This document shows positions 14,820 through 24,287 of a stretch of 64,000 nt of DNA, in pieces. The translations under genes and the position numbers were made by a program. The notes under the pieces are model-generated. The model saw only the letters and a list, made by a program, of their open reading frames with translations, did no database searches and had not been told where the DNA came from. Positions within the stretch are counted from its first letter, which is position 1. Each line of letters begins with the position of its first letter. This DNA comes from an uncultured Gemmatimonadales bacterium (GTDB taxonomy: Bacteria; Gemmatimonadota; Gemmatimonadetes; Gemmatimonadales; GWC2-71-9): assembly GCA_963771275.1 (NCBI GenBank), contig CAVYSW010000010.1, positions 64,001 to 128,000 on the forward strand. Reading direction: 5' to 3'.

Positions 14820-15638
14820 TCAGTAGTAGTGCGCTACCTGCCAGTTCGCGCCGGCGCCGAAGCTCATCGCGAGGTTGTACTTGGCCTCGAACTCGAAGGT
14901 CGATTCCGGATACTGCTTGCCGTGCCAGGCCGGGTCGATGATGTAGTAGCAGTCGTTCGGTTGCTCGCGCACGGCCATTCCTTCCATGATGCGCAGGTGG
15001 AGTCCGGTCACGGGAGGGAGGCTGTTCCCCTCGCCCACGGCGAGCAGCCCGTGCTTGCGGAGGAAGTCGTACCAGATGTAGTCCGGGAACGTCGCGAACC
15101 CCCGCACCGTGAGCCCGCCGCGCGTCCAGAAGTCCCTGAACTGGGAGGGCTGGAGCCCGCGATCCTGCTTGAACAGGTCGACGTACTGCTTGCCCGGCTT
15201 CTCGAGGGCTTCGGCGATCTCGAACTTCTTCCCCTCGCGCCACGATCGCATCATGGTGTAGACCGTGGCCCAGCAGGTCCTGTTGGTCGGCTGGCCAATG
15301 ACCCATTTCTTGCCGGGGACCACGTAGACGAGCTGCTTCGCGGGTGGTGGCGGCGGCGGCGGCGTTGGGGAGGGCGCCGGGGTGTCGTAGTCGTTCAGGC
15401 GCGCCAGGGTCTTGCCGCCGGGATCGACCCGCCCGTCGGGCCACTTGTGGCCAAGGTTGACCGACTGGAAGCGCTTGATGGCGGCGATCGTCTTGCCCCA
15501 GGCGAGGCCGTCCACCTTGAGTGGGATCTGCGGCCCACCCGCATCCACCGGCACCTGGTTGAGCAGCTCTTGGACGGTGGTCGCGTCAGGCTTGGTGTTC
15601 GTCCCGCCCTGGCCGACCGACTTCGAGATGGTCCGCAC
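14820..15638 (-). CDS. Peptidoglycan-binding domain plus papain-like (C70/C39-type) cysteine peptidase
   Basis: VQELLN..LKVDGLAWGKTIAAIKRFQ..DGRVDPGGKT, Pro-rich linker, then QPTNRTCWA...H...IIDP. GGAGG RBS before GTG 15638. Confidence 0.75.
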   Translation of the reverse strand: MRTISKSVGQGGTNTKPDATTVQELLNQVPVDAGGPQIPLKVDGLAWGKTIAAIKRFQSVNLGHKWPDGRVDPGGKTLARLNDYDTPAPSPTPPPPPPPAKQLVYVVPGKKWVIGQPTNRTCWATVYTMMRSWREGKKFEIAEALEKPGKQYVDLFKQDRGLQPSQFRDFWTRGGLTVRGFATFPDYIWYDFLRKHGLLAVGEGNSLPPVTGLHLRIMEGMAVREQPNDCYYIIDPAWHGKQYPESTFEFEAKYNLAMSFGAGANWQVAHYY

Positions 15639-15802
15639 GAGCCTTGCCTCCGTCGCCGGCCCACGGTTCGATGGGCCAGCCCGCAGCCGCGCGCGACGTT
15701 GCCGAAAAGTGGACCGAGCTGACCGCTGGGAATGGGTACGTTGCGTCAGAGAGGGCGGTGGGGCAAGGCCGGCCATCGGGGCCCGGCGCGCGGTGCGGCG
15801 GA

Positions 15803-15886
15803 CGGAGGGCGAGGGACTCGAACCCCCAAGGGCTTGCGCCCAGCGGTTTTCAAGACCGCCGCCTTACCAGTTAGGTCTAGCCCTCC
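15803..15886 (-). tRNA. tRNA-Ser(UGA)
   Basis: GGAGGGC/GCCCTCC acceptor stem, G73, anticodon arm GCGGT-CTTGAAA-ACCGC, long variable arm, GTTCGAGT T-loop. Confidence 0.93.
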
Positions 15887-15946: not shown

Positions 15947-18106
15947 CTACAGCTTCTGGAGCAGGGTCTGGAACCGCGGGTCCTCGCGGATGGCGTCCAG
16001 GTCGCTGTCGTGAACCAGCCACTCCCGGTGGCCGAATCCGTTGGCGATCGCCTTGTCGAGGCAGCCGATCGCCTCGTCCCGCATCCCGCCGAGCGAGTAC
16101 ACGCACGCGACGTTGTACAACACGCCCGGATCCGTGGGATCGATGGCGTACGCCCGCCCCACCCAGTCGAGCGCGCGCGCGCGCTCGCCCAGCTGCATCA
16201 GGGCGCCGCCCGCGAGGTACAGCGCCCGGGCGTCGTCGGGGTTCAGCTCGAGGTGCCGCTCGGCCACCTGAAGCCCGCGCCGCAGCACGGCCTTCGCCTC
16301 GTCGCGACGCCCGAGGCTGTTGAGCGGCGTCTGCATCAGGAGCAGGGCCTGGTAATCCTCCGGGCGGACCCGCGAGGCCTCCTCGTACTGCCGCACCGCG
16401 TCCTCCGCCCGCCCCTCCTGAAACAGCGCCCGGGCGTACAGGTAGTGCGCCTCGTAGAGCTTGGGATTCAGGCGGATGGCCGTCTCGAATTCAGGCCGCG
16501 CCTCCTGGTACTGGCGGTTGAGGGCCAGGGCGAACCCGCGGGACGCGTGGGCCTCGGCCAGGTCGGGATCCAGCTCCAGCGCCTGGCGGCTCGCCGAGTC
16601 GGCGCCGTCCAGATTGGCCTTGCTGCCGTCCCAATACATGTAGAGGAAGGCGCAGCAGTCGGCGAGACCGGCGTACGCCAGCCCGAACCGGGGATCGATC
16701 TCGATCGCCCGCTCGAACATCCGGCGCGCGGACTGCATCCCCGTGCGGCGGAACTGGTGAAAGTACTGGCGGCCGCGGAGGTAGTACTCGTAGGCCTGGA
16801 CGTTCTCGGTCGGCACCCGCTCGATGGCGCGCTTCTCGTCCTCGCTCAGCATCACGCGCAGGGCCTTGACGATGTTCTCGGCAATCTCGTCCTGGATGGC
16901 GAACACGTCCTCCAGCTGCCGATCGTACCGCTCGGACCACAGCCGGTAGCCGTCGGCCACGTTGATGAGCTGCGCCGTCACGCGGAGCCGGTCGCCCGCC
17001 TTGCGCACGCTCCCTTCGAGCACGGTCGCGACCTTGAGCTTGCGGCCGATCTCGCCCATGTCCTCGCTCTTGCCCTTGAAGGCGAAGGACGACGTGCGGG
17101 CGGCCACCTGGAGCGCTTGGATCTTGCTCAACGCGTTGATGATCTCCTCGGCGATGCCGTCGCTGAAGTACTCGTTCTCGGCATCGGCGCTCATGTTGAC
17201 GAACGGCAACACGGCAATGGACCGGCTCCTCCCGGACGCCGCGGGCGCGCCGGGCGGCGTCGAGGTTCCGCCGGGCCACGTGAGTGCGTGCGCCAGCTGC
17301 GCCGCGGTCGCGAACCGCGCCTCGGCCACCTTCTCGAGACACGTGAACACCGCGCTCTCGAGCCAGCCCGGGACGTCCTCGCGGTGCTCGTGGATCGGGC
17401 GCGGCGGATCGGTGAACAGCTTCGTGATGATGGCCTGGACCGTGGGGCCGGTGAACGGCGGCGCGCCGGCGACCATCTCGTACAGCATGGCGCCGAGCGA
17501 GTAGATGTCGGTCCGGCCGTCCAGCTCGGGCTCGCCGCTCGCCTGTTCCGGACTCATGTAGGCCGGCGTGCCGACGGCGGTGCCGGTTTGGGTGAGGGTG
17601 TCGGCGGCGGCGGCGGCGCTCACCGCCTTGGCGATCCCGAAGTCGGTGACCATCGCCTCGTCTTCGTGCAGCATGACGTTCTCGGGCTTGATGTCCCGAT
17701 GCACGATCTGTTGACGGTGGGCATAGTCGAGGGCGGACGCCACGCCGCGGGCGAAACGCACGGCATCCTCGAGCGGGAGCCGATGCTCCCGGTCGAGCCG
17801 CTGGCGCAGGGACTCGCCGGGGATGAACGGCATGACGTAGTAGAGCAGGTCGCCGGCCTGACCGGAATCGTAGAGCGGCACGATATGCGGGTGCTGGAGC
17901 CGCGCCGCGATCTGGATCTCCCGCAGGAACCGCTCCGGCCCGAGCGCGACGGCGAGCTGCGGGTGCAGCACCTTGAGCGCGACCGGCCGTCCATGGCGGC
18001 GATCCTGTGCCAGGAACACGGTGGCCATGCCGCCGCGACCCACCTCCCGCTCGATGGTGTAGCGGTCGGCGGTGGACCTGCGGAGCTGGTCGAGGACGTC
18101 CGGCAT
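15947..18106 (-). CDS. Ser/Thr protein kinase with TolB-like N domain and TPR repeats
   Basis: GRGGMATV, VALK, HRDIKPEN, DFG, GTPAYMSPE, then SIAVLPFVNMS..EYFSDG, then TPRs. TATAAT lies 9 nt upstream. Confidence 0.95.
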   Translation of the reverse strand: MPDVLDQLRRSTADRYTIEREVGRGGMATVFLAQDRRHGRPVALKVLHPQLAVALGPERFLREIQIAARLQHPHIVPLYDSGQAGDLLYYVMPFIPGESLRQRLDREHRLPLEDAVRFARGVASALDYAHRQQIVHRDIKPENVMLHEDEAMVTDFGIAKAVSAAAAADTLTQTGTAVGTPAYMSPEQASGEPELDGRTDIYSLGAMLYEMVAGAPPFTGPTVQAIITKLFTDPPRPIHEHREDVPGWLESAVFTCLEKVAEARFATAAQLAHALTWPGGTSTPPGAPAASGRSRSIAVLPFVNMSADAENEYFSDGIAEEIINALSKIQALQVAARTSSFAFKGKSEDMGEIGRKLKVATVLEGSVRKAGDRLRVTAQLINVADGYRLWSERYDRQLEDVFAIQDEIAENIVKALRVMLSEDEKRAIERVPTENVQAYEYYLRGRQYFHQFRRTGMQSARRMFERAIEIDPRFGLAYAGLADCCAFLYMYWDGSKANLDGADSASRQALELDPDLAEAHASRGFALALNRQYQEARPEFETAIRLNPKLYEAHYLYARALFQEGRAEDAVRQYEEASRVRPEDYQALLLMQTPLNSLGRRDEAKAVLRRGLQVAERHLELNPDDARALYLAGGALMQLGERARALDWVGRAYAIDPTDPGVLYNVACVYSLGGMRDEAIGCLDKAIANGFGHREWLVHDSDLDAIREDPRFQTLLQKL

Positions 18107-18432
18107 GAAGGGGGGATTATACCCGAGGGAGGACCGGAGCACGAGGGGCGAGGGGGACTGCGCGCGGGGTTTCGCTCATCCTCGCGATCCTCCGATATCA
18201 GGACGGGGCGGTGACCTGCATAGCATGGCCGGGAGAGTGTCCGGCCCCACCGAACGCCTCGCTTGACGTCTCCTCCGTGACCGCCGCCTGCTTGGCCTCA
18301 AGTTCCGCCGCCAGCGCTGGAACGATGACGTTCGCTCCGGCTGTCAGCCGTATCATCGACCTGCGGCGCGGCAGCGCTTGCCGAGTCACGCGTCCTCGCC
18401 TTCGGGTTGCCAGGGCTCGCAGCCGATGAGGT

Positions 18433-18516
18433 GCCGGTGTGGCGAAACCGGCAAACGCGGAGACCCGGTAAGCCTCTGGGCTTCGGCCCTTACCGGTTCG
18501 AATCCGGTCGCCGGCA
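18433..18516 (+). tRNA. Non-canonical tRNA: tRNA-Leu-type body with GGU (Thr) anticodon, C33 and an A30-C40 mismatch
   Basis: Folds as GCCGGTG/CGCCGGC-A73, D arm GCG-AAACCGGCAAA-CGC, anticodon arm GAGAC-CCGGTAA-GCCTC, V arm GGGC-TTCG-GCCC, T arm ACCGG-TTCGAAT-CCGGT. Confidence 0.85.
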
Positions 18517-18654
18517 ACCGCCGCACCATGGGCCGAGTTGCATCGGGAGCCTCGCCGAGCGTACACTACCCGAACTTGCCGGGTCTCCGCGTGGCAGGCC
18601 GCCATGCTCAACGAGCCGGGGGATCATCTCCTGGCTCGTTGTTCTTCCTTCGTC

Positions 18655-18775
18655 GCCACTCGCGGAGCTGCACCGAGCCCGCGAGGTAGACGGCGCCTAC
18701 CACGACACGCCGGAGCAGCACACCCGCGACGCCACCCGGACCGCCACGCTGGAAGCTCGCGCCCTCATCCGGCCC
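18655..18775 (+). pseudogene. Remnant of a DUF559/Vsr-like endonuclease gene
   Basis: EVDGAYHDTPEQHTRDATRTATLEAR matches the E-x-DG-x-x-H...RD..R..L core. No intact N-terminus is visible. Boundaries are approximate. Confidence 0.55.
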
Positions 18776-18781
18776 TACGTC

Positions 18782-18822
18782 CCCCCTCTCCGCGAACGCG
18801 GAGAGGGGGCCAGGGGGTGAGG
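18782..18822. repeat. REP-like GC-rich palindrome
   Basis: CCCCCTCTCCGCG-AA-CGCGGAGAGGGGG hairpin followed by CCAGGGGGTGAGG. Confidence 0.7.
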
Positions 18823-18847
18823 CCAGGCCACGACCCGCCAAGGGACC

Positions 18848-20173
18848 TCACGCCGCGCGCGATCTCCCCCGCCGCACCCCCGCATACACCGGCACCCCGG
18901 CCAGCAGCAACACGCAGCCCCAGAACACCGTGTCTCCCCCTGAGCCGACGATGGCCCAGACCGAGTAGAGCAACGCCAGCAGCGCCACGGCGAGCGCGTT
19001 GGCGAGCTGCGCGCGGCTCAGCCGCTTCCGTTCCCTGAAGTGCATCAGCGCCAGCGCCGCGGTGGAGAACGCGTACGGCACCAGCGTCGTGAGCGTCGCC
19101 AGCAGGATGATGAACGTGAACTCGGCCACCAGGCCCTTGGTGAAGTTCATGCCGACGATCAGCGTCACGAGCACGCTCGAGATGACGAGTGACGCCACGG
19201 GCGTGCCGCGTGCGGACCGGCGGCCGAGCACCGGCGGCAGCACACCGTCCACCGCCGCCGCCAGCGGGAGCTGTCCCTGGAGCAGAATCCAGCCGTTGAG
19301 CGCGCCGAAGCACGAGATCGCCGCGCCGGCCGCGACCGCGTGCGCCGCCCACGGCCCCCACATGCTGCTCGCCGCGTCGGCGAACGGCGCGGTGGACGTC
19401 GCGAGCGTCGCGGACGGAATCACGCCCATCACCGCGACCGTGCCCAAAATGTAGACCGCCGCCGCGAGCACGGTGCCGAGTAGGGTCGCCCGTGGGATCG
19501 TGCGCTCGGGCCGCTCGACCTCGCCCGCGGGAATGGTCGCCGATTCCAGGCCGAGGAACGCCCACAGGGTGAGCGCCGCCGTGGCGGACACGGCGGACAG
19601 CGTGGAGCGCCCGCTCGGGTTGAACGGGGTGAAGTTGTCCCAGTGGATGAAGGCCAGGCCGATGGTGCCCACCGCGACGAGCGGCAGCAGCTTGAGCACG
19701 GTGGTGACCAGCTGCACGCCGCCCGCCTCGCGTACCCCCCGCGCGTTGACCCACGTGAGCAGCCAGATCGCCGCCAGCGCGGCGGCGGCACCCAGGGCCG
19801 GACTCGTCGCCAGCGGCCGCCAGAAGAAGCCCAGGTACCCCACCATGCCGACGGCGATCGCCGCGTTTCCCACACAGGTCGAGATCCAGTAGCCCCACGC
19901 CACCAGGAACCCGGCGAACTCGCCGAAGCCGGCCCGCGTGTACGCATACGGCCCGCCGGCCCTGGGGATCATGCGCGCGAGCCGCGCGAACGCTATCGCG
20001 AGGAGCACGGCGCCGGTCGACGTGAACAGCCAGCCGATGAGGCTGATGCCGCCGTACGGCCCGAGCGAGGCAGGGAGCAGGAAGACCCCCGACCCGATCA
20101 TGTTGCCCACCACCAGGGCCGTGGCCATCCACAGGCCGAGCTTGCGCGATGTGGTCGCGCTCGGGGTGGTCAC
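18848..20173 (-). CDS. APC-family amino acid/polyamine permease
   Basis: GNMIGSGVFLLP, GGPYAY, WAFLGLES, about 12 TM helices. Confidence 0.92.
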   Translation of the reverse strand: MTTPSATTSRKLGLWMATALVVGNMIGSGVFLLPASLGPYGGISLIGWLFTSTGAVLLAIAFARLARMIPRAGGPYAYTRAGFGEFAGFLVAWGYWISTCVGNAAIAVGMVGYLGFFWRPLATSPALGAAAALAAIWLLTWVNARGVREAGGVQLVTTVLKLLPLVAVGTIGLAFIHWDNFTPFNPSGRSTLSAVSATAALTLWAFLGLESATIPAGEVERPERTIPRATLLGTVLAAAVYILGTVAVMGVIPSATLATSTAPFADAASSMWGPWAAHAVAAGAAISCFGALNGWILLQGQLPLAAAVDGVLPPVLGRRSARGTPVASLVISSVLVTLIVGMNFTKGLVAEFTFIILLATLTTLVPYAFSTAALALMHFRERKRLSRAQLANALAVALLALLYSVWAIVGSGGDTVFWGCVLLLAGVPVYAGVRRGRSRAA

Positions 20174-20180
20174 GGGACGA

Positions 20181-21077
20181 TCACCGGGCGTGCGCCGCGC
20201 CGTCCACCAGGGCCCGCAGCGCGGCGATGTGCGCCGGCGTCGTGCCGCAGCAGCCGCCGATGATCGCGACACCGGCGTCGATCAGTCCGCGCGCCCTGTC
20301 GGCCATGAACGCGGGGGTCTCGTCGTACACGGTGGTGTCGCCCACCATGCGTGGCAGCCCCGCGTTGGGCTGGATGAGGAGCGGGAGCGGCGTGTGCCGG
20401 CGGAACTCCCGCGCGATCGCGACCATGTGCTCGATGCCCGTACCGCAGTTGGAGCCGATCACGTCGGCGCCGGCGTCTGCCAGGCCCGCCGCCGCGGCCG
20501 CGACGCTCACCCCCATGATCGTAAAGTAGCCCCGTGGCGTGGGATCGAACGTCATCGTGGCGAGCACCGGGATCGCCGCGGACACGTCCTTCGCCGCCCG
20601 GATGGCGAGCGTCGCCTCCGCGAGGTCCGTCATCGTCTCGATGCAGACGCAGTCCACGCCGGCCGCGATCAGCGCCGTCATCTGCCGGCGAAAGCCCTCA
20701 TACATGGCGTCCCGGGTCGTGTCGCCGTACGGCTCGAGCAATCGGCCGGACGGTCCGCACGATCCCGCGACGTAGGCCCGATCGCCCGCCACCCGGCGCA
20801 CGGCCGCGACGGCCGAGCGATTGAGCGTCTCCGTCTCGTGCTCCAGGCCGTGGAGCGCGAGCTTGAGCGGCGAGCCGCCGAACGTGTTGGTCTCGAGGAG
20901 GTCGGCCCCGGCGTCGAGGTAGAGCCGCGCGATCTCCTCCAGGACGCCGGGCCGCGACAGCGTGATCGTCTCGGGTGGCTGGCCGGGCTCGAGGCCGCGG
21001 GCCAGGAGCATCGTGCCCATCGCCCCGTCACCCACGAAGCGCTCGCCGGCGGCCAGACGCTCCAGCAGCGGCTGCAC
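20181..21077 (-). CDS. Homocysteine S-methyltransferase (stand-alone MetH Hcy-binding domain)
   Basis: DGAMGTML, ETNTFG, IETM, GSNC, PNAGLP, IGGCCGTTPAHI (Zn ligands). Confidence 0.92.
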   Translation of the reverse strand: MQPLLERLAAGERFVGDGAMGTMLLARGLEPGQPPETITLSRPGVLEEIARLYLDAGADLLETNTFGGSPLKLALHGLEHETETLNRSAVAAVRRVAGDRAYVAGSCGPSGRLLEPYGDTTRDAMYEGFRRQMTALIAAGVDCVCIETMTDLAEATLAIRAAKDVSAAIPVLATMTFDPTPRGYFTIMGVSVAAAAAGLADAGADVIGSNCGTGIEHMVAIAREFRRHTPLPLLIQPNAGLPRMVGDTTVYDETPAFMADRARGLIDAGVAIIGGCCGTTPAHIAALRALVDGAAHAR

Positions 21078-21078
21078 G

Positions 21079-21717
21079 TCAGCGCCGGCCCACGAGGTCC
21101 TTCACCACGTCTACCGCGTTCCCGGCATCGAACCCGTAGGCGTCGGCACCGATCGCGCGGGCGAACGCCTCCGTCACCGGCGCCCCGCCGACGATGGTGC
21201 GCACGGTGCCGTCGAGTCCCTCGCGCTTGAGCAGCTCGACCACCTCCCGCATGGCGGGCATCGTCGTCGTGAGCAGCGCCGACATCCCGATCACCGACGC
21301 GCCGTGCTCCCGCGCCGTCGCGACCATCTTGGCCGGCGCCACGTCATGGCCGAGGTCGATGACGTCGAAGCCCGCCCCCTTGAGCATGATGCCCACCAGG
21401 TTCTTGCCGATGTCGTGCAGATCCCCGCGCACCGACCCGATCACCACCTTGCCGAGCGCGGGGATCCCGTCGCGGATCAGCAGCGGCTTGAGCAGGTCCA
21501 TGCCGGCGTACATCGCGCGCGCCGCGAGCAGCACGTCGGGCAGGAAGATCTCGTGGTCCCGGAATCGGTCGCCCACCACCGTCATGCCGGCGATCAGCCC
21601 GTCGTCGAGGATCGTCTTGGGCGGGATCCCGTCAACGATGGCCCGGCTCGTGAGGTCGCCGGCGCGCGTATGGTCGCCGGCGATGATGGCAGCTGAAAGG
21701 TCGCTGAGGAGAGTCAT
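21079..21717 (-). CDS. Corrinoid (cobalamin-binding) protein
   Basis: Cap domain plus GDLHDIGKNLV, SALLTTTM and VGGAPV. Confidence 0.94.
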   Translation of the reverse strand: MTLLSDLSAAIIAGDHTRAGDLTSRAIVDGIPPKTILDDGLIAGMTVVGDRFRDHEIFLPDVLLAARAMYAGMDLLKPLLIRDGIPALGKVVIGSVRGDLHDIGKNLVGIMLKGAGFDVIDLGHDVAPAKMVATAREHGASVIGMSALLTTTMPAMREVVELLKREGLDGTVRTIVGGAPVTEAFARAIGADAYGFDAGNAVDVVKDLVGRR

Positions 21718-21723
21718 GGGGCT

Positions 21724-21851
21724 CCGTTAGCCGTTGGCCGTTAGCCGTTGGCCGTTAGCCGATGACCGATTGCCGATTGCCGATTGCCGTTCGCGACCTG
21801 CGATTGCGAACCGATACCCATCGGCTAGCGGCCATCGGTATTCGGCTATCG
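21724..21851. repeat. Heptamer arrays in inverted arrangement (CCGWTRG about x10, then ATCGGCT-like x4)
   Basis: Read directly. The two halves are reverse complements of the same family and could pair. Confidence 0.85.
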
Positions 21852-22565
21852 TCTCGACAGCGCCAGCGCCCTGAGTCGCTCGCGGCACGTCTTGGTCTCG
21901 CACCGACCGCAGAAGTCGTAGGTCGGCGGGAACCGGTGGATGGCGCGCGGCCCGGCGAGGATCACGCCGGAAACCGACTTGAGCGGCTGCATCAGGCAGC
22001 TCTCCGTGAGCGTGAGGCCGACGACCTCGGGCCGGAGGTGGGCGAACAGCCGCTTCTGGCCCGTGACGTCCCACCCGCAGTATCCCGGACTGTAGCGCAG
22101 CGCCGCCCCATCGGGGGTCGTCCAGCCGCGGTCGCGCAGCGTGCCTTCGAACCGGCGCTCGGCGACGTCGGCGGCCGCGTCTGCCGCGACCGACGCCATC
22201 GCGTCCAGCATGTACGCCAGCGCGAAGTCCTGCGCCGCGAACCGCTCACTCAGGGTCTCGGTCACGCGCGGCCCCAGGGTCACGGCGAACAACGCCAGAT
22301 GCTCCGCCCGCGGGAAGATGTCGGCGACCGGCGAGTCGGGCTCGTTCCTGCCCTCGCCCCGGTACACGGCCTCGAACTCGGCGGGCGTGACGTCCGCGAG
22401 CACCCCGGCGGGTGCCACGCTCTCGGCGAACAACTCCGCGGCCGCCCCATAGAGCCGCTCGATCCGGTCGGAGACGTCGGCGCCGGCCGGGATGCCCACC
22501 TGCCGGAGCACCTCGCTCCGATCTGGGGCGATGTCGGCCTGCGCCAGCTCGACGATGGCGCTCAC
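21846..22565 (-). CDS. Stand-alone B12 methionine synthase reactivation-domain protein
   Basis: LFAVTLG, RYSPGYCGW..GQ, GLTLTESCLMQPLKSVSG, C-terminal CxxCxxxxC. Confidence 0.85.
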   Translation of the reverse strand: MSAIVELAQADIAPDRSEVLRQVGIPAGADVSDRIERLYGAAAELFAESVAPAGVLADVTPAEFEAVYRGEGRNEPDSPVADIFPRAEHLALFAVTLGPRVTETLSERFAAQDFALAYMLDAMASVAADAAADVAERRFEGTLRDRGWTTPDGAALRYSPGYCGWDVTGQKRLFAHLRPEVVGLTLTESCLMQPLKSVSGVILAGPRAIHRFPPTYDFCGRCETKTCRERLRALALSRR

Positions 22566-24022
22566 GCGGGCCGGTACGGGAGGTGGTCCATCCCCCAACG
22601 CTGCGCCTCGCGGGTCATCAGGCGCGTGAGCTCGGCCTTCACGTCGTCGCCCAGGGCCGACGGCTGATAGGCAGCGAGCAGCCGCTCCACCTCGCGGTGC
22701 GCCCGCTGGCCGAGCGTGAAGCCCCCCTCCGCCTGCCAGCGAGAGCGGTTTGCCCGGTCGATCGCGGGGCCCGGAAAGTAGTGCTCGGTCTTGAGGTAAC
22801 GCCGCGTGTGATCCGCGATCAGCAGGTGCTTGTCCCTCATCAACTCCTCGAACCGGGGCAGGGCCGGGAAGTCGTCTCGCGGCTCCACGCCGCGCACCAG
22901 CCGCTGCACCATGCCGCAGATCTCGTTGTCGACCACGAGCTTCTCGAGGGAGAGACAGCTCTCGAAGTCGAGCATGCCGGGACCGGACACGCTGTTCACG
23001 CCCGCCAGTGCCGCCAGCGTCGCTCCCATCGACGACTCGAGGCCGGCCTGCGCGTCCAATAGCTTGGCGTCGCTCAGGCCCATGTACGCCTGCGTCGGCA
23101 GACCCAGAAACCTGCCGATCTCGCAGTAGGCGCATTCGATCATCATGGTCTCGACCGCGCCCATTGGGGTCGTCTCATAGCGGATGTCGAACGCGGCGGG
23201 CGAGCCGCCGTACAGCGCGGGGGTGCCCGGGTTGGTGAGCTGGCTGATCACGATGCCGCTCAGCGTCTCGGCCGTGTGCTGCACCAGCGAGCCCACCAGC
23301 GTCACCGGCGCCACGAACCCGCTGAGCGGCATCGAGACGTACTCGACGGGGATCGAGTGCCGCGCGCAGTCCACCACGTTCTGCGAGGTGACGTCGCTCC
23401 AGGTGAGCGGCGCCGTGGGGCAGCAAGAGAAGATGGTAAGCGGCTTCTCCTTGAGCGCCGCCGCGCTGCCGCGCACGGCGAGCTGGAGGTCGCGCATCAC
23501 GTTGAAGGCGTCGATCGTGAACGCGCCCGTCACGACCGGCTTCTGGCCCAGCATCAGGCTCAGGTACAGCCGGAAGCTGTCGGAGATGTTCTGGTGCACG
23601 TCGCCCGGCACGAGGGCGGTGCTCTGGAAGTCGAGGTGGTCGAGCCGGGACGTGAGCTTCGCGTACGCGACGTAGTCGTCGGTCGTCGGCGGCCGCGTCG
23701 CGTGCGCGTCGTGATCGAGCACGTAGATCGCCGCCGAGCCGGGCGTGAAGTGCACCCGGTCGCCGGACAGGTCGTACGCCGTCGTGCCGAGCGCGTCGTA
23801 CAGCCGGAAGCCGTGCGGCGCCGTGCGGAGCGCCTGGTCCACGATGCCGTCGATGAGGAAGGCGCGGTGGGTGGCGGCGTCAACGCGGGCGCCGTGGTCC
23901 GCCAGCATGGACAGAATGCCGGGATTGTGGATCTCGACGCCCAGCTGCTGCAGCACCGTCCGCGCCTCGGCGACGATGCGCCGCACGAGATCAGGACCGA
24001 GGAACTGGACGACGGGTCGCAT
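22562..24022 (-). CDS. MttB-superfamily (trimethylamine/quaternary amine:corrinoid) methyltransferase, non-pyrrolysine type
   Basis: APVTLVGSLVQHTAETLSG, YMGLSDAKLLDAQAGLES, GPGMLDFE, EKLVVDNEI. No in-frame TAG. Confidence 0.9.
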   Translation of the reverse strand: MRPVVQFLGPDLVRRIVAEARTVLQQLGVEIHNPGILSMLADHGARVDAATHRAFLIDGIVDQALRTAPHGFRLYDALGTTAYDLSGDRVHFTPGSAAIYVLDHDAHATRPPTTDDYVAYAKLTSRLDHLDFQSTALVPGDVHQNISDSFRLYLSLMLGQKPVVTGAFTIDAFNVMRDLQLAVRGSAAALKEKPLTIFSCCPTAPLTWSDVTSQNVVDCARHSIPVEYVSMPLSGFVAPVTLVGSLVQHTAETLSGIVISQLTNPGTPALYGGSPAAFDIRYETTPMGAVETMMIECAYCEIGRFLGLPTQAYMGLSDAKLLDAQAGLESSMGATLAALAGVNSVSGPGMLDFESCLSLEKLVVDNEICGMVQRLVRGVEPRDDFPALPRFEELMRDKHLLIADHTRRYLKTEHYFPGPAIDRANRSRWQAEGGFTLGQRAHREVERLLAAYQPSALGDDVKAELTRLMTREAQRWGMDHLPYRPA

Positions 24023-24055
24023 AGTGCACTCCTTGGGACCCCAAGCTAGCCTGCC

Positions 24056-24084
24056 CGCTGCACGCTGTACGCTACGCGCTGCCC
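24056..24084 (-). repeat. Heptamer array, inverted near-copy of 9618-9652
   Basis: Reverse complement GGGCAGCGCGTAGCGTACAGCGTGCAGCG versus GGGCAGCGTGTAGCGTGTAGCGTACAGCGTGCAGC. Confidence 0.75.
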
Positions 24085-24287
24085 GCCGGCCGCGCCGCGA
24101 GTATGCGCAGCACGTTGAACACCCCGACGACGACGTTCTCGAGCCAGAACAGCAGGAGCAGCGCAAACACCTGCCAGCCGAGCCAGAGGACCCCGACGAC
24201 CGGGATGAGGTTCGCCGCCGTCAGCGCCAGGACCGACGGCACGAGGGGCCGCGGAATCGGCCGCTGCCACAGGCTGCGTGCGAGCAG

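Follow-up and report, generated by a model that had tools for sequence, protein, structure and literature searches.

We describe here a compact module of about 300 nt, found in a 64,000-nucleotide stretch of DNA (the window) from a Gemmatimonadales bacterium of soil or sediment, in which a tRNA with a leucine-type body and a threonine anticodon is accompanied by two complements of its anticodon arm, one in a structured leader and the other at the 5' end of a predicted antisense RNA. Covariation shows that the two complements match the tRNA arm and co-evolve with it. We consider it slightly better than an even bet that the unit is an RNA-only toxin-antitoxin-like module, in which a leucine-charged missense tRNA would be checked by the antisense RNA. 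The broader proposal, which we regard as evenly balanced, is that these elements form a toxin-antitoxin or defence system of a novel type, in which a reprogrammable missense tRNA, with a leucine body and an exchangeable anticodon, is the toxin and a co-evolving anti-anticodon RNA the antitoxin. It would come in two designs, Gemmatimonadota using a 5' antisense tail and Planctomycetota a kissing terminator loop. The module architecture appears to be new. In order, it comprises the leader, the tRNA, a second sigma-70-like promoter, an RNA of about 78 nt and a terminator, and its parts are as follows:

18351-18356, + strand: putative -10 box of the precursor promoter, inferred from a similar hexamer in relatives
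18363-18432, + strand: conserved structured 5' leader (alignment A2, 38 modules)
18370-18376 with 18418-18424, + strand: internal stem of the leader (helix analysis)
18377-18393, + strand: partial complement of the anticodon arm in the leader (helix analysis)
18407-18413, + strand: complement of the D-loop in the leader (helix analysis)
18433-18516, + strand: tRNA of leucine-type body, its GGU anticodon at 18467-18469; a candidate toxin or missense tRNA
18517-18526, + strand: 3' trailer, without encoded CCA, pairing with the 5' end of the leader (helix and fold)
18538-18567, + strand: inferred sigma-70-like internal promoter (-35 at 18538-18543, -10 at 18562-18567, 18-nt spacer)
18574-18652, + strand: predicted antisense small RNA, candidate antitoxin (complement, covariation, terminator)
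18575-18592, + strand: antisense 5' segment, complementary to tRNA positions 22-39 (18455-18472)
18609-18641, + strand: intrinsic terminator followed by a U-rich tail (terminator scan of the window copy)

The tRNA gene was called tRNA-Thr(ggt) by ARAGORN (18432-18519) and matched Rfam RF00005 at 18433-18516 with 45.1 bits. Read from the sequence, it forms a canonical 7/5 leucine-type cloverleaf with a 7-bp acceptor (G1-C72, C2-G71, C3-G70), discriminator A73, A15 plus U48, G18G19-C20-A20a, a 5-bp T stem and a 15-nt variable region whose 4-bp stem is capped by a tetraloop and separated from U48 by one unpaired base. The leucine-type body that the initial annotation had proposed is confirmed: A73, A15-U48, G18G19, A20a and the long variable arm are all those of tRNA-Leu, and the anticodon is GGU instead of NAG or YAA. 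The short class I variable loop of tRNA-Thr is absent, and the three ordinary tRNA-Thr of the window's genome (G000) are short-armed. G35, U36, G1-C72 and C2-G71, which we take to be the tRNA-Thr identity set and which had been pointed out before, are all present.

The anticodon loop (18465-18471) reads C32 C33 G34 G35 U36 A37 A38, and the stem has an A30xC40 mismatch. A check of the reads had been suggested, and the contigs of X1, X2 and X3, public runs that belong to three different studies, keep the CC-GGU-AA loop with C33 and GGU unchanged; the X3 contig (record 19) is identical to the window letter for letter and may come from the window's own strain. In X1 (record 1) and X2 (record 12), a T at 18473 creates an A30-U40 pair, and the mismatch is a strain-level trait. 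The statement that damage is confined to the anticodon arm holds in that C33 and A30xC40 are there, but it fails as to their meaning, the mismatch varying between strains and C33 occurring in 18 of 69 family members, so that it is no damage peculiar to this copy, whose drifted sites are C17, U36, C40 and A74. Since independent contigs keep loop and anticodon, an assembly error is ruled out, and so is a hybrid tRNA formed by integration, because the acceptor pairs fully.

The genome is 96.7% complete and, according to the ARAGORN list, has complete ordinary tRNA sets (Leu 5, Thr 3, Ala 3, Val 3). Reassignment of threonine codons or replacement of a lost tRNA is thus unlikely, since all the ordinary Thr and Leu isoacceptors are present. 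LeuRS, ValRS, IleRS and MetRS, the synthetases counted, all of class I, are encoded once each, the LeuRS being of bacterial type. No synthetase is shared among the 90 and 116 flanking ORFs of the family (one ArgRS lies beside locus L256 only), and, with a single LeuRS, a dedicated synthetase is not supported. Leucine identity in E. coli requires A73, A15-U48, G18G19 and A20a and not the anticodon (PMC9976931), and threonine identity depends on acceptor pairs and anticodon, with a minor role for the discriminator (PMC9976931, section 27). From these rules we infer that the single bacterial-type LeuRS would leucylate the GGU tRNA. ThrRS may charge the window copy too, thereby blunting it, and a possible prediction for this copy is dual Leu/Thr charging.

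A search for homologs, also suggested by the initial annotation, disclosed a conserved family with non-leucine anticodons. The window's genome contains five copies, the other four leucine-body tRNAs carrying CGC (three) and GGC. An anticodon-blind pattern run over 91 family genomes, with matches counted by eye, found 38 non-leucine leucine-body genes in 18 of them, with C36 in 36, U36 in two and a purine in none; no non-leucine version with a purine at position 36 was found in 251 genomes. Another scan matched 39 of 301 genomes, chance matches included, its reversed control being also positive in about 20, and the prevalence is for this reason taken from the 18 of 91. The family is patchy in Gemmatimonadota. 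We compared 91 distinct Gemmatimonadota genes with enough flanking sequence (G020 was left out); the scan that collected them gave at least 120 rows, and the family is larger than this set. The patterns used to collect the 91 listed genes demand Y36 and A37, and within that frame 11 anticodons, for Ala, Val, Thr, Asp, Gly or Glu, were found: CGC (31), CAC (24) and GGC (11) were the commonest, followed by GGU (4), GUC (4), GCC (4), CUC (3), GAC (3), UGC (3), UUC (2) and AGC (2). A73 was present in 90 of the 91, also with Asp, Gly and Glu anticodons, and G3:U70 in none, not even in the 47 with Ala anticodons. A set of 69 members, one of them a G020 gene, had U48 in 68, Y32 in 66 and A37 in all 69. 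The stems were 97.3% paired in 20 genes (one from G020), with changes on both sides in 13 of 24 pairs, which bears out the earlier judgement that random decay does not account for this tRNA. The codons read by the three commonest anticodons, GCG, GUG and GCC, rank 1, 5 and 2 in the window's genome, and ACC ranks 18 (2.45%), as counted in 1150 long ORFs chosen by a composition filter.

Gemmatimonadota accounted for 45 of the first 80 titled loci listed for the leucine-body scaffold, bacterium HR33 being one that we have assumed to belong with them, and comparable bodies are found in Planctomycetota, Actinomycetota and Proteobacteria, among other groups. Viral contigs, phages and plasmids yielded no copy of the family, and phage or plasmid carriage is thus not supported. 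The viral contigs (L073-L192) contain many tRNAs with a leucine-type D loop and a long variable arm, with Asn (G73), Gly, Ser, Ala, Thr or Val anticodons and, in a recurrent form, an unpaired anticodon arm; an antisense site was present in none of 57 phage long-arm tRNAs. At L193, L205, L216 and L247 a DDE transposase gene directly follows a leucine-body tRNA, the transposase ORF lying within 5 nt of the tRNA end at L205 and L216, and these tRNAs may be an insertion-sequence target or cargo.

A hexamer resembling the -10 box of the precursor promoter lies 72-90 nt before G1 in 61 of 93 flanked members, as found with a permissive pattern without shuffle control. About 20 nt upstream of this box, many members share a weakly conserved motif (18324-18329), possibly a regulator or alternative sigma site. 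The leader was analysed in alignment A2, made of 38 hand-picked members with one leader type. Its helices were paired in 95.0% (5' end with trailer), 87.2% (internal stem), 81.5% (anticodon arm) and 95.4% (D-loop), versus 33-44% in slid controls, and 19 of 34 pairs showed changes on both sides, the scored structure having been drawn from the same aligned sequences. RNAalifold recovered the leader:D-loop helix unprompted. The signal of the leader is weaker than that of the downstream complement, since duplex z-scores against the arm reached -2 or lower in 30 of 69 members for the former and -3 or lower in 68 of 69 for the latter. The precursor is predicted to be 16 kcal/mol more stable with its arm masked than in the cloverleaf form (-84.2 versus -68.2 kcal/mol). 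After 3' trimming, the energy model still favours the masked fold over the cloverleaf (-75.5 versus -61.6 kcal/mol); folding thus did not reproduce a hok-like release by trimming, a point against the toxin-antitoxin reading. RF00005 apart, no Rfam model, T-box riboswitch included, matched 18250-18750 at E up to 1, and the leader had no Rfam match.

The limits of the module are sharp. Homology to the same-genus genome G006 spans 18362-18648 and then ends abruptly, and in G003, whose site is empty, the 1.5 kb after the shared permease and corrinoid genes contain no tRNA. A contig of a near-identical strain (X2, record 9) lacks 18316-18660 and has 34 other letters instead, which indicates that the module can be lost. 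In the window, it is flanked by genes for a Ser/Thr kinase and for an amino-acid permease. Elsewhere the neighbours vary and are often toxin-antitoxin, nuclease, transposase or kinase genes, with PIN, ParE, HepT, Uma2 and HNH among the frequent nuclease-type toxin or defence genes, and no common neighbour such as an integrase was seen among the 90 and 116 flanking ORFs. At 18640-18830 there is a degenerate coding-like stretch without Pfam match, reminiscent of a remnant DUF559-type endonuclease, and after it comes a REP-like palindrome also seen in G006.

Other features of the region can be noted. The cluster at 18848-24166 (- strand) includes a trimethylamine-methyltransferase-like gene, split cobalamin methionine-synthase domains, a homocysteine methyltransferase and an amino-acid antiporter. 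The one tRNA-Ser(UGA) that looks genuine, at 15803-15886 (- strand), has an atypical D arm, an Rfam score of only 35.4 bits and a variable arm closely resembling that of the GGU tRNA; the adjoining ORF (14820-15776, - strand) matched Pfam Peptidase_C70 (AvrRpt2-like papain fold) with E 1.9e-9. In other contigs of this genome, two tRNA-Gln(UUG) copies stand 1.7 kb apart (G000:C10:33552-35357) and a 3' fragment of tRNA-Ala (G000 C6:118767-118847) lies 8 kb from tRNA-Ala(UGC), both being likely integration scars.

The downstream RNA is where the anticodon is matched. In the window copy its 5' segment would pair with the tRNA through 17 Watson-Crick pairs and a single G·U, at U36, a hairpin lies between this segment and the terminator, and the predicted energy of the two RNAs co-folded is -100.1 kcal/mol versus -78.8 apart. 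The internal promoter pattern was present in 68 of the 69 members (mean 4.0 and maximum 11 in 500 shuffles). In 52 of 65, its -10 box ended 7-8 nt upstream of the point where the antisense begins, and 54 of 69 had a terminator-like motif. A strict promoter scan of 18100-18900 gave no match, the -35 box of the window copy being weak and below threshold. To locate the antisense site without reference to the anticodon, we used positions 27-39 with 34-36 masked and read the triplet afterwards. The exact matching codon was there in 84 of the 91 listed members, against a mean of 18.0 and a maximum of 32 in 10,000 permutations. The seven exceptions are the window copy; L068, with a matching triplet in a gapped register; L019 (G000:C3:143434-143522), a decayed paralog with an interrupted leader, acceptor and T-stem mismatches and an unmatched antisense; and L265, with nearly intact stems, and L285, L302 and L308, with fully paired ones, which had no antisense match in the stretch searched. 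None of four true tRNA-Leu genes tested in the window's genome had an antisense site, and this 5' test found an exact partner in 2 of 33 leucine-body genes of other phyla.

In alignment A2, the 18-pair helix was 88.6% paired, versus 30-46% when slid, with 112 two-sided cells against 39 in shuffled data, and RNAalifold predicted the antisense:anticodon-arm helix unprompted. Non-Watson-Crick cells at 65 sites were G·U in 31 cases, A·C in 12 and other in nine, and within positions 28-38 of the helix G·U outnumbered A·C by 27 to 2. This excess indicates RNA pairing; copying at the DNA level would be expected to treat both mismatches alike. On a 38-row tree built without the anticodon arm and its complements, and poorly resolved (24 of 35 inner branches weak), 20 anticodon changes were counted versus a mean of 20.7 with shuffled labels; because anticodons switch on this tree like shuffled labels, the codon match is not mere inheritance. 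For four of the five antisense RNAs of the window's genome, the best predicted target is the arm of the tRNA in their own module (-24.2 to -38.8 kcal/mol, the strongest off-target being -22.5); the fifth is decayed and belongs to the L019 tRNA. An ORF with a ribosome site was found in the small RNA in none of 38 rows, and a ribosome site plus start codon in nine of 38 leaders. As predicted from sequence, both partners may be non-coding RNAs. In the literature searched we found no natural antisense RNA dedicated to an anticodon, subscription papers being thinly covered, nor, with incomplete coverage, a bacterial leucine-body family of this kind or such a module.

The threonine anticodon itself proved incidental. 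In the window copy the partner triplet is GCC and the anticodon GGU, with one G·U pair at U36; in the orthologous module of G006 the triplet is likewise GCC, the anticodon is GGC and the stem is perfect. On this account, GGU most likely derives from GGC by a C36 to U change, with wobble still covering the pairing, and belongs as a variant to the CGC/CAC/GGC family. An independent U36 set of 19 distinct genes, parsed from 29 metagenome loci, included 13 with an antisense site, all of which pair (eight exactly, five by G·U); these were GGU in ten cases (seven with ACC, three with GCC), GAU in two and CGU in one. The other six had other anticodons and no antisense site. Since the metagenome genes repeat GGU with ACC or GCC, threonine appears to be a minor state that has been reached repeatedly. 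The window copy is probably weakened by its C33, by the mismatch in the stem and by possible charging through ThrRS. The initial guess of leucine misreading was a sound one; its threonine framing was not, and the masking leader and antisense RNA had been overlooked.

A second design was found in Planctomycetota, where a downstream promoter would produce an RNA whose terminator loop carries 5-7 bases complementary to the anticodon loop, codon included. The complement was identified by script at L220, L223, L278, L287 and L301 (total 31, reached by 4 of 5040 permutations). The automatic test took the first hairpin only and scored L303 and L352 as 0; in the former, the complement was read by eye in the second hairpin, and in the latter the loop of the second hairpin, also read by eye, is complementary at 7 of 7 positions, as predicted before its sequence was read. 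Loop complements thus occur in seven of nine Planctomycetota loci, L288 and L300 lacking such a hairpin. These seven loci have Glu and Asp anticodons, and their small RNA has an additional first hairpin. Outside Planctomycetota, the loop complement was present in one of 26 leucine-body tRNAs, L283 (Obscuribacterales) has a partial loop match, L230 shows the 5' antisense design, and in about 25 genes of other phyla neither the 5' nor the loop test detected a partner. The survey of Planctomycetota matched two of 301 genomes, one of them being its centre.

We propose the following mechanism. The anticodon arm is matched partially in the leader and almost perfectly at the start of the downstream unit, which, from its promoter and terminator signals, would be separately transcribed as an antisense RNA of about 78 nt. 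The precursor would fold with anticodon arm and D-loop masked, keeping mature tRNA normally scarce or sequestered. Once matured, the tRNA would be leucylated by the single ordinary LeuRS, which by the identity rules should ignore the anticodon, and leucine would be inserted at abundant non-leucine codons, namely GCG, GUG and GCC family-wide and ACC/ACU for the window copy, which has drifted from Ala(GGC) to Thr(GGU) while a G·U wobble keeps it covered. If type I systems are a guide, mistranslation would slow or kill the cell when the antisense supply stops under stress, phage shut-off or loss of the locus. Toxin plus antitoxin is the simplest reading because of the masking in cis and trans, the copy-specific partners, the patchy spread and the abundance of the target codons. 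Missense allo-tRNAs are lethal to E. coli on induction (PMC5389517). Against this reading stand the intact tRNAs without partner, the loss of the module in a near-identical strain, the lack of copies in the phage and plasmid sets, and the fact that members with Val and Thr anticodons carry the anticodon determinants of the cognate synthetases. In addition, nematode nev-tRNAs are leucylated in vitro with no detectable mistranslation (PMC4300185).

The strongest competitor, unlikely but to be taken seriously, keeps the same parts and leucine misreading and makes them a tuned stress response, that is, low-level proteome diversification or dormancy. Chromosomal location, several copies per genome with differing anticodons and the lack of copies in viral and plasmid sets would all suit it, and the C33 of 18 of 69 members could damp decoding as proposed for mistranslating tRNAs without U33 (PMC11415595); yet patchiness (18 of 91 family genomes), variable neighbours and copy-specific pairing are better suited to selfish modules. 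It is rather improbable that the tRNA has its role off the ribosome, drawing anticodon nucleases or tRNA-modifying toxins to itself as a decoy, donating leucine or serving as a sponge for the small RNA, the latter being then the effector. The frequent nuclease-type toxin or defence neighbours (PIN, ParE, HepT, Uma2, HNH) are in line with such a role, and some allo-type tRNAs are charged and unused in translation (PMC5389517), but the canonical T stem, the 7-nt loop, whose position 32 is Y in 66 of 69 members and position 37 A in all of them, and anticodons limited to Y36 speak against it. Moreover, a decoy would be expected to mimic the body of the host tRNA and not that of leucine, and the double masking suggests that the tRNA is the harmful partner.

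We give little credence to the idea that the complements are inverted DNA copies whose likeness is maintained by template switching or gene conversion within a small mobile or selfish element, with no selection for RNA pairing. Leader and downstream unit do resemble an inverted tRNA 5' half, and the module has sharp ends (18362-18648 versus G006) and an empty site in G003; against that, G·U exceeds A·C by 27 to 2 within the helix, the promoter is phased so that the transcript begins at the complement, and the 5-7-nt loop complements of Planctomycetota are too short for conversion. Cognate charging by anticodon, the window gene being a long-arm tRNA-Thr that aids decoding under antisense control, is very improbable: G35, U36, G1-C72 and C2-G71 of the window copy and the cognate G73 of phage long-arm tRNAs with Asn anticodons would be consistent with it, but the body is constant across anticodons (no G3:U70 even in the 47 of 91 with Ala, A73 with Asp, Gly and Glu) and the ordinary isoacceptors are all present in the genome. 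An ordinary decaying pseudo-tRNA or assembly error can practically be discounted, and is excluded for the family, for although the window copy has drifted (C17, U36, C40, A74) and one paralog is clearly decayed, independent contigs keep the loop and stems, leader and antisense covary family-wide.

The module of leucine-body tRNA and antisense RNA resembles several known systems in part. The hok precursor is reportedly folded and inactive, self-masked as in the leader described here, and SdsR-RyeA is said to be a type VIII RNA-RNA system in which both partners are RNA and translation is targeted. Type I pairs (hok/sok, tisB/istR, par RNA I/II) likewise combine a toxin and an antisense RNA with separate promoters, but their toxin is a protein made from an mRNA (PMC5086665), whereas here a tRNA is masked and the target is a real anticodon loop. 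At the sequence level the antisense RNA has its own promoter and complementarity to the toxin transcript, as in type I, and no small-protein toxin is apparent, an ORF with a ribosome site occurring in 0 of 38 small-RNA rows. In type VIII CreTA both partners are RNA and translation is the target, as proposed for the module, but CreT works by sequestering a tRNA of the host and CreA by repressing transcription via Cascade (PMC12737573); in the module the candidate toxin is itself a tRNA that direct pairing would neutralise, and there is no CRISPR link, neither CRISPR-Cas nesting nor a crRNA-like antitoxin being found and the neighbours being a kinase and a permease.

As to the payload, tRNA-ProX (tRNA-ProA/N/T with ProRSx, in Streptomyces and Kitasatospora) similarly puts foreign anticodons, Ala and Thr included, on one body, lacks U33 and has been proposed to mediate encoded mistranslation, but it has a proline body, A34 and a co-encoded dedicated synthetase, and its section in the source does not mention antisense RNA (PMC11415595). 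The module differs in its leucine body, G34, the lack of a synthetase neighbour and the predicted antisense control. Allo-tRNAs share the long variable arm, the many non-cognate anticodons and the frequent proximity to toxin-antitoxin genes, and their missense suppression is toxic in E. coli; they differ by an 8/4 or 9/3 acceptor branch, a tRNA-Sec-like D arm, G73 or U73 and Ser or Ala identity, and the main text describes no antisense partner (PMC5389517). The GGU tRNA has 7/5 pairing with covariation and A73, and falls outside that group. Nematode nev-tRNAs are also class II bodies, with Gly or Ile anticodons, and are leucylated in vitro, but they are eukaryotic, and in the text available no in vivo mistranslation was detected and no antisense partner is mentioned (PMC3333845, PMC4300185). 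The layout is hence that of type I systems and the payload that of tRNA-ProX, allo-tRNAs and nev-tRNAs, and the module lacks a defining trait of each.

Bacterial tRNAs of mismatched identity are known (allo-tRNAs, tRNA-ProX), and the papers cited, in the parts available, leave their purpose and control open. The module offers a concrete control element, an RNA aimed at a single anticodon arm. If toxic, it would represent a new toxin mechanism, programmed proteome-wide misreading, in a protein-free addiction or defence unit; if tuned and non-lethal, it would be a switch for inducible ambiguity of the genetic code. These elements would also provide natural orthogonal tRNA/anti-tRNA pairs for synthetic biology, and many of the Ala, Val and Thr tRNA calls in Gemmatimonadota are probably misannotated.
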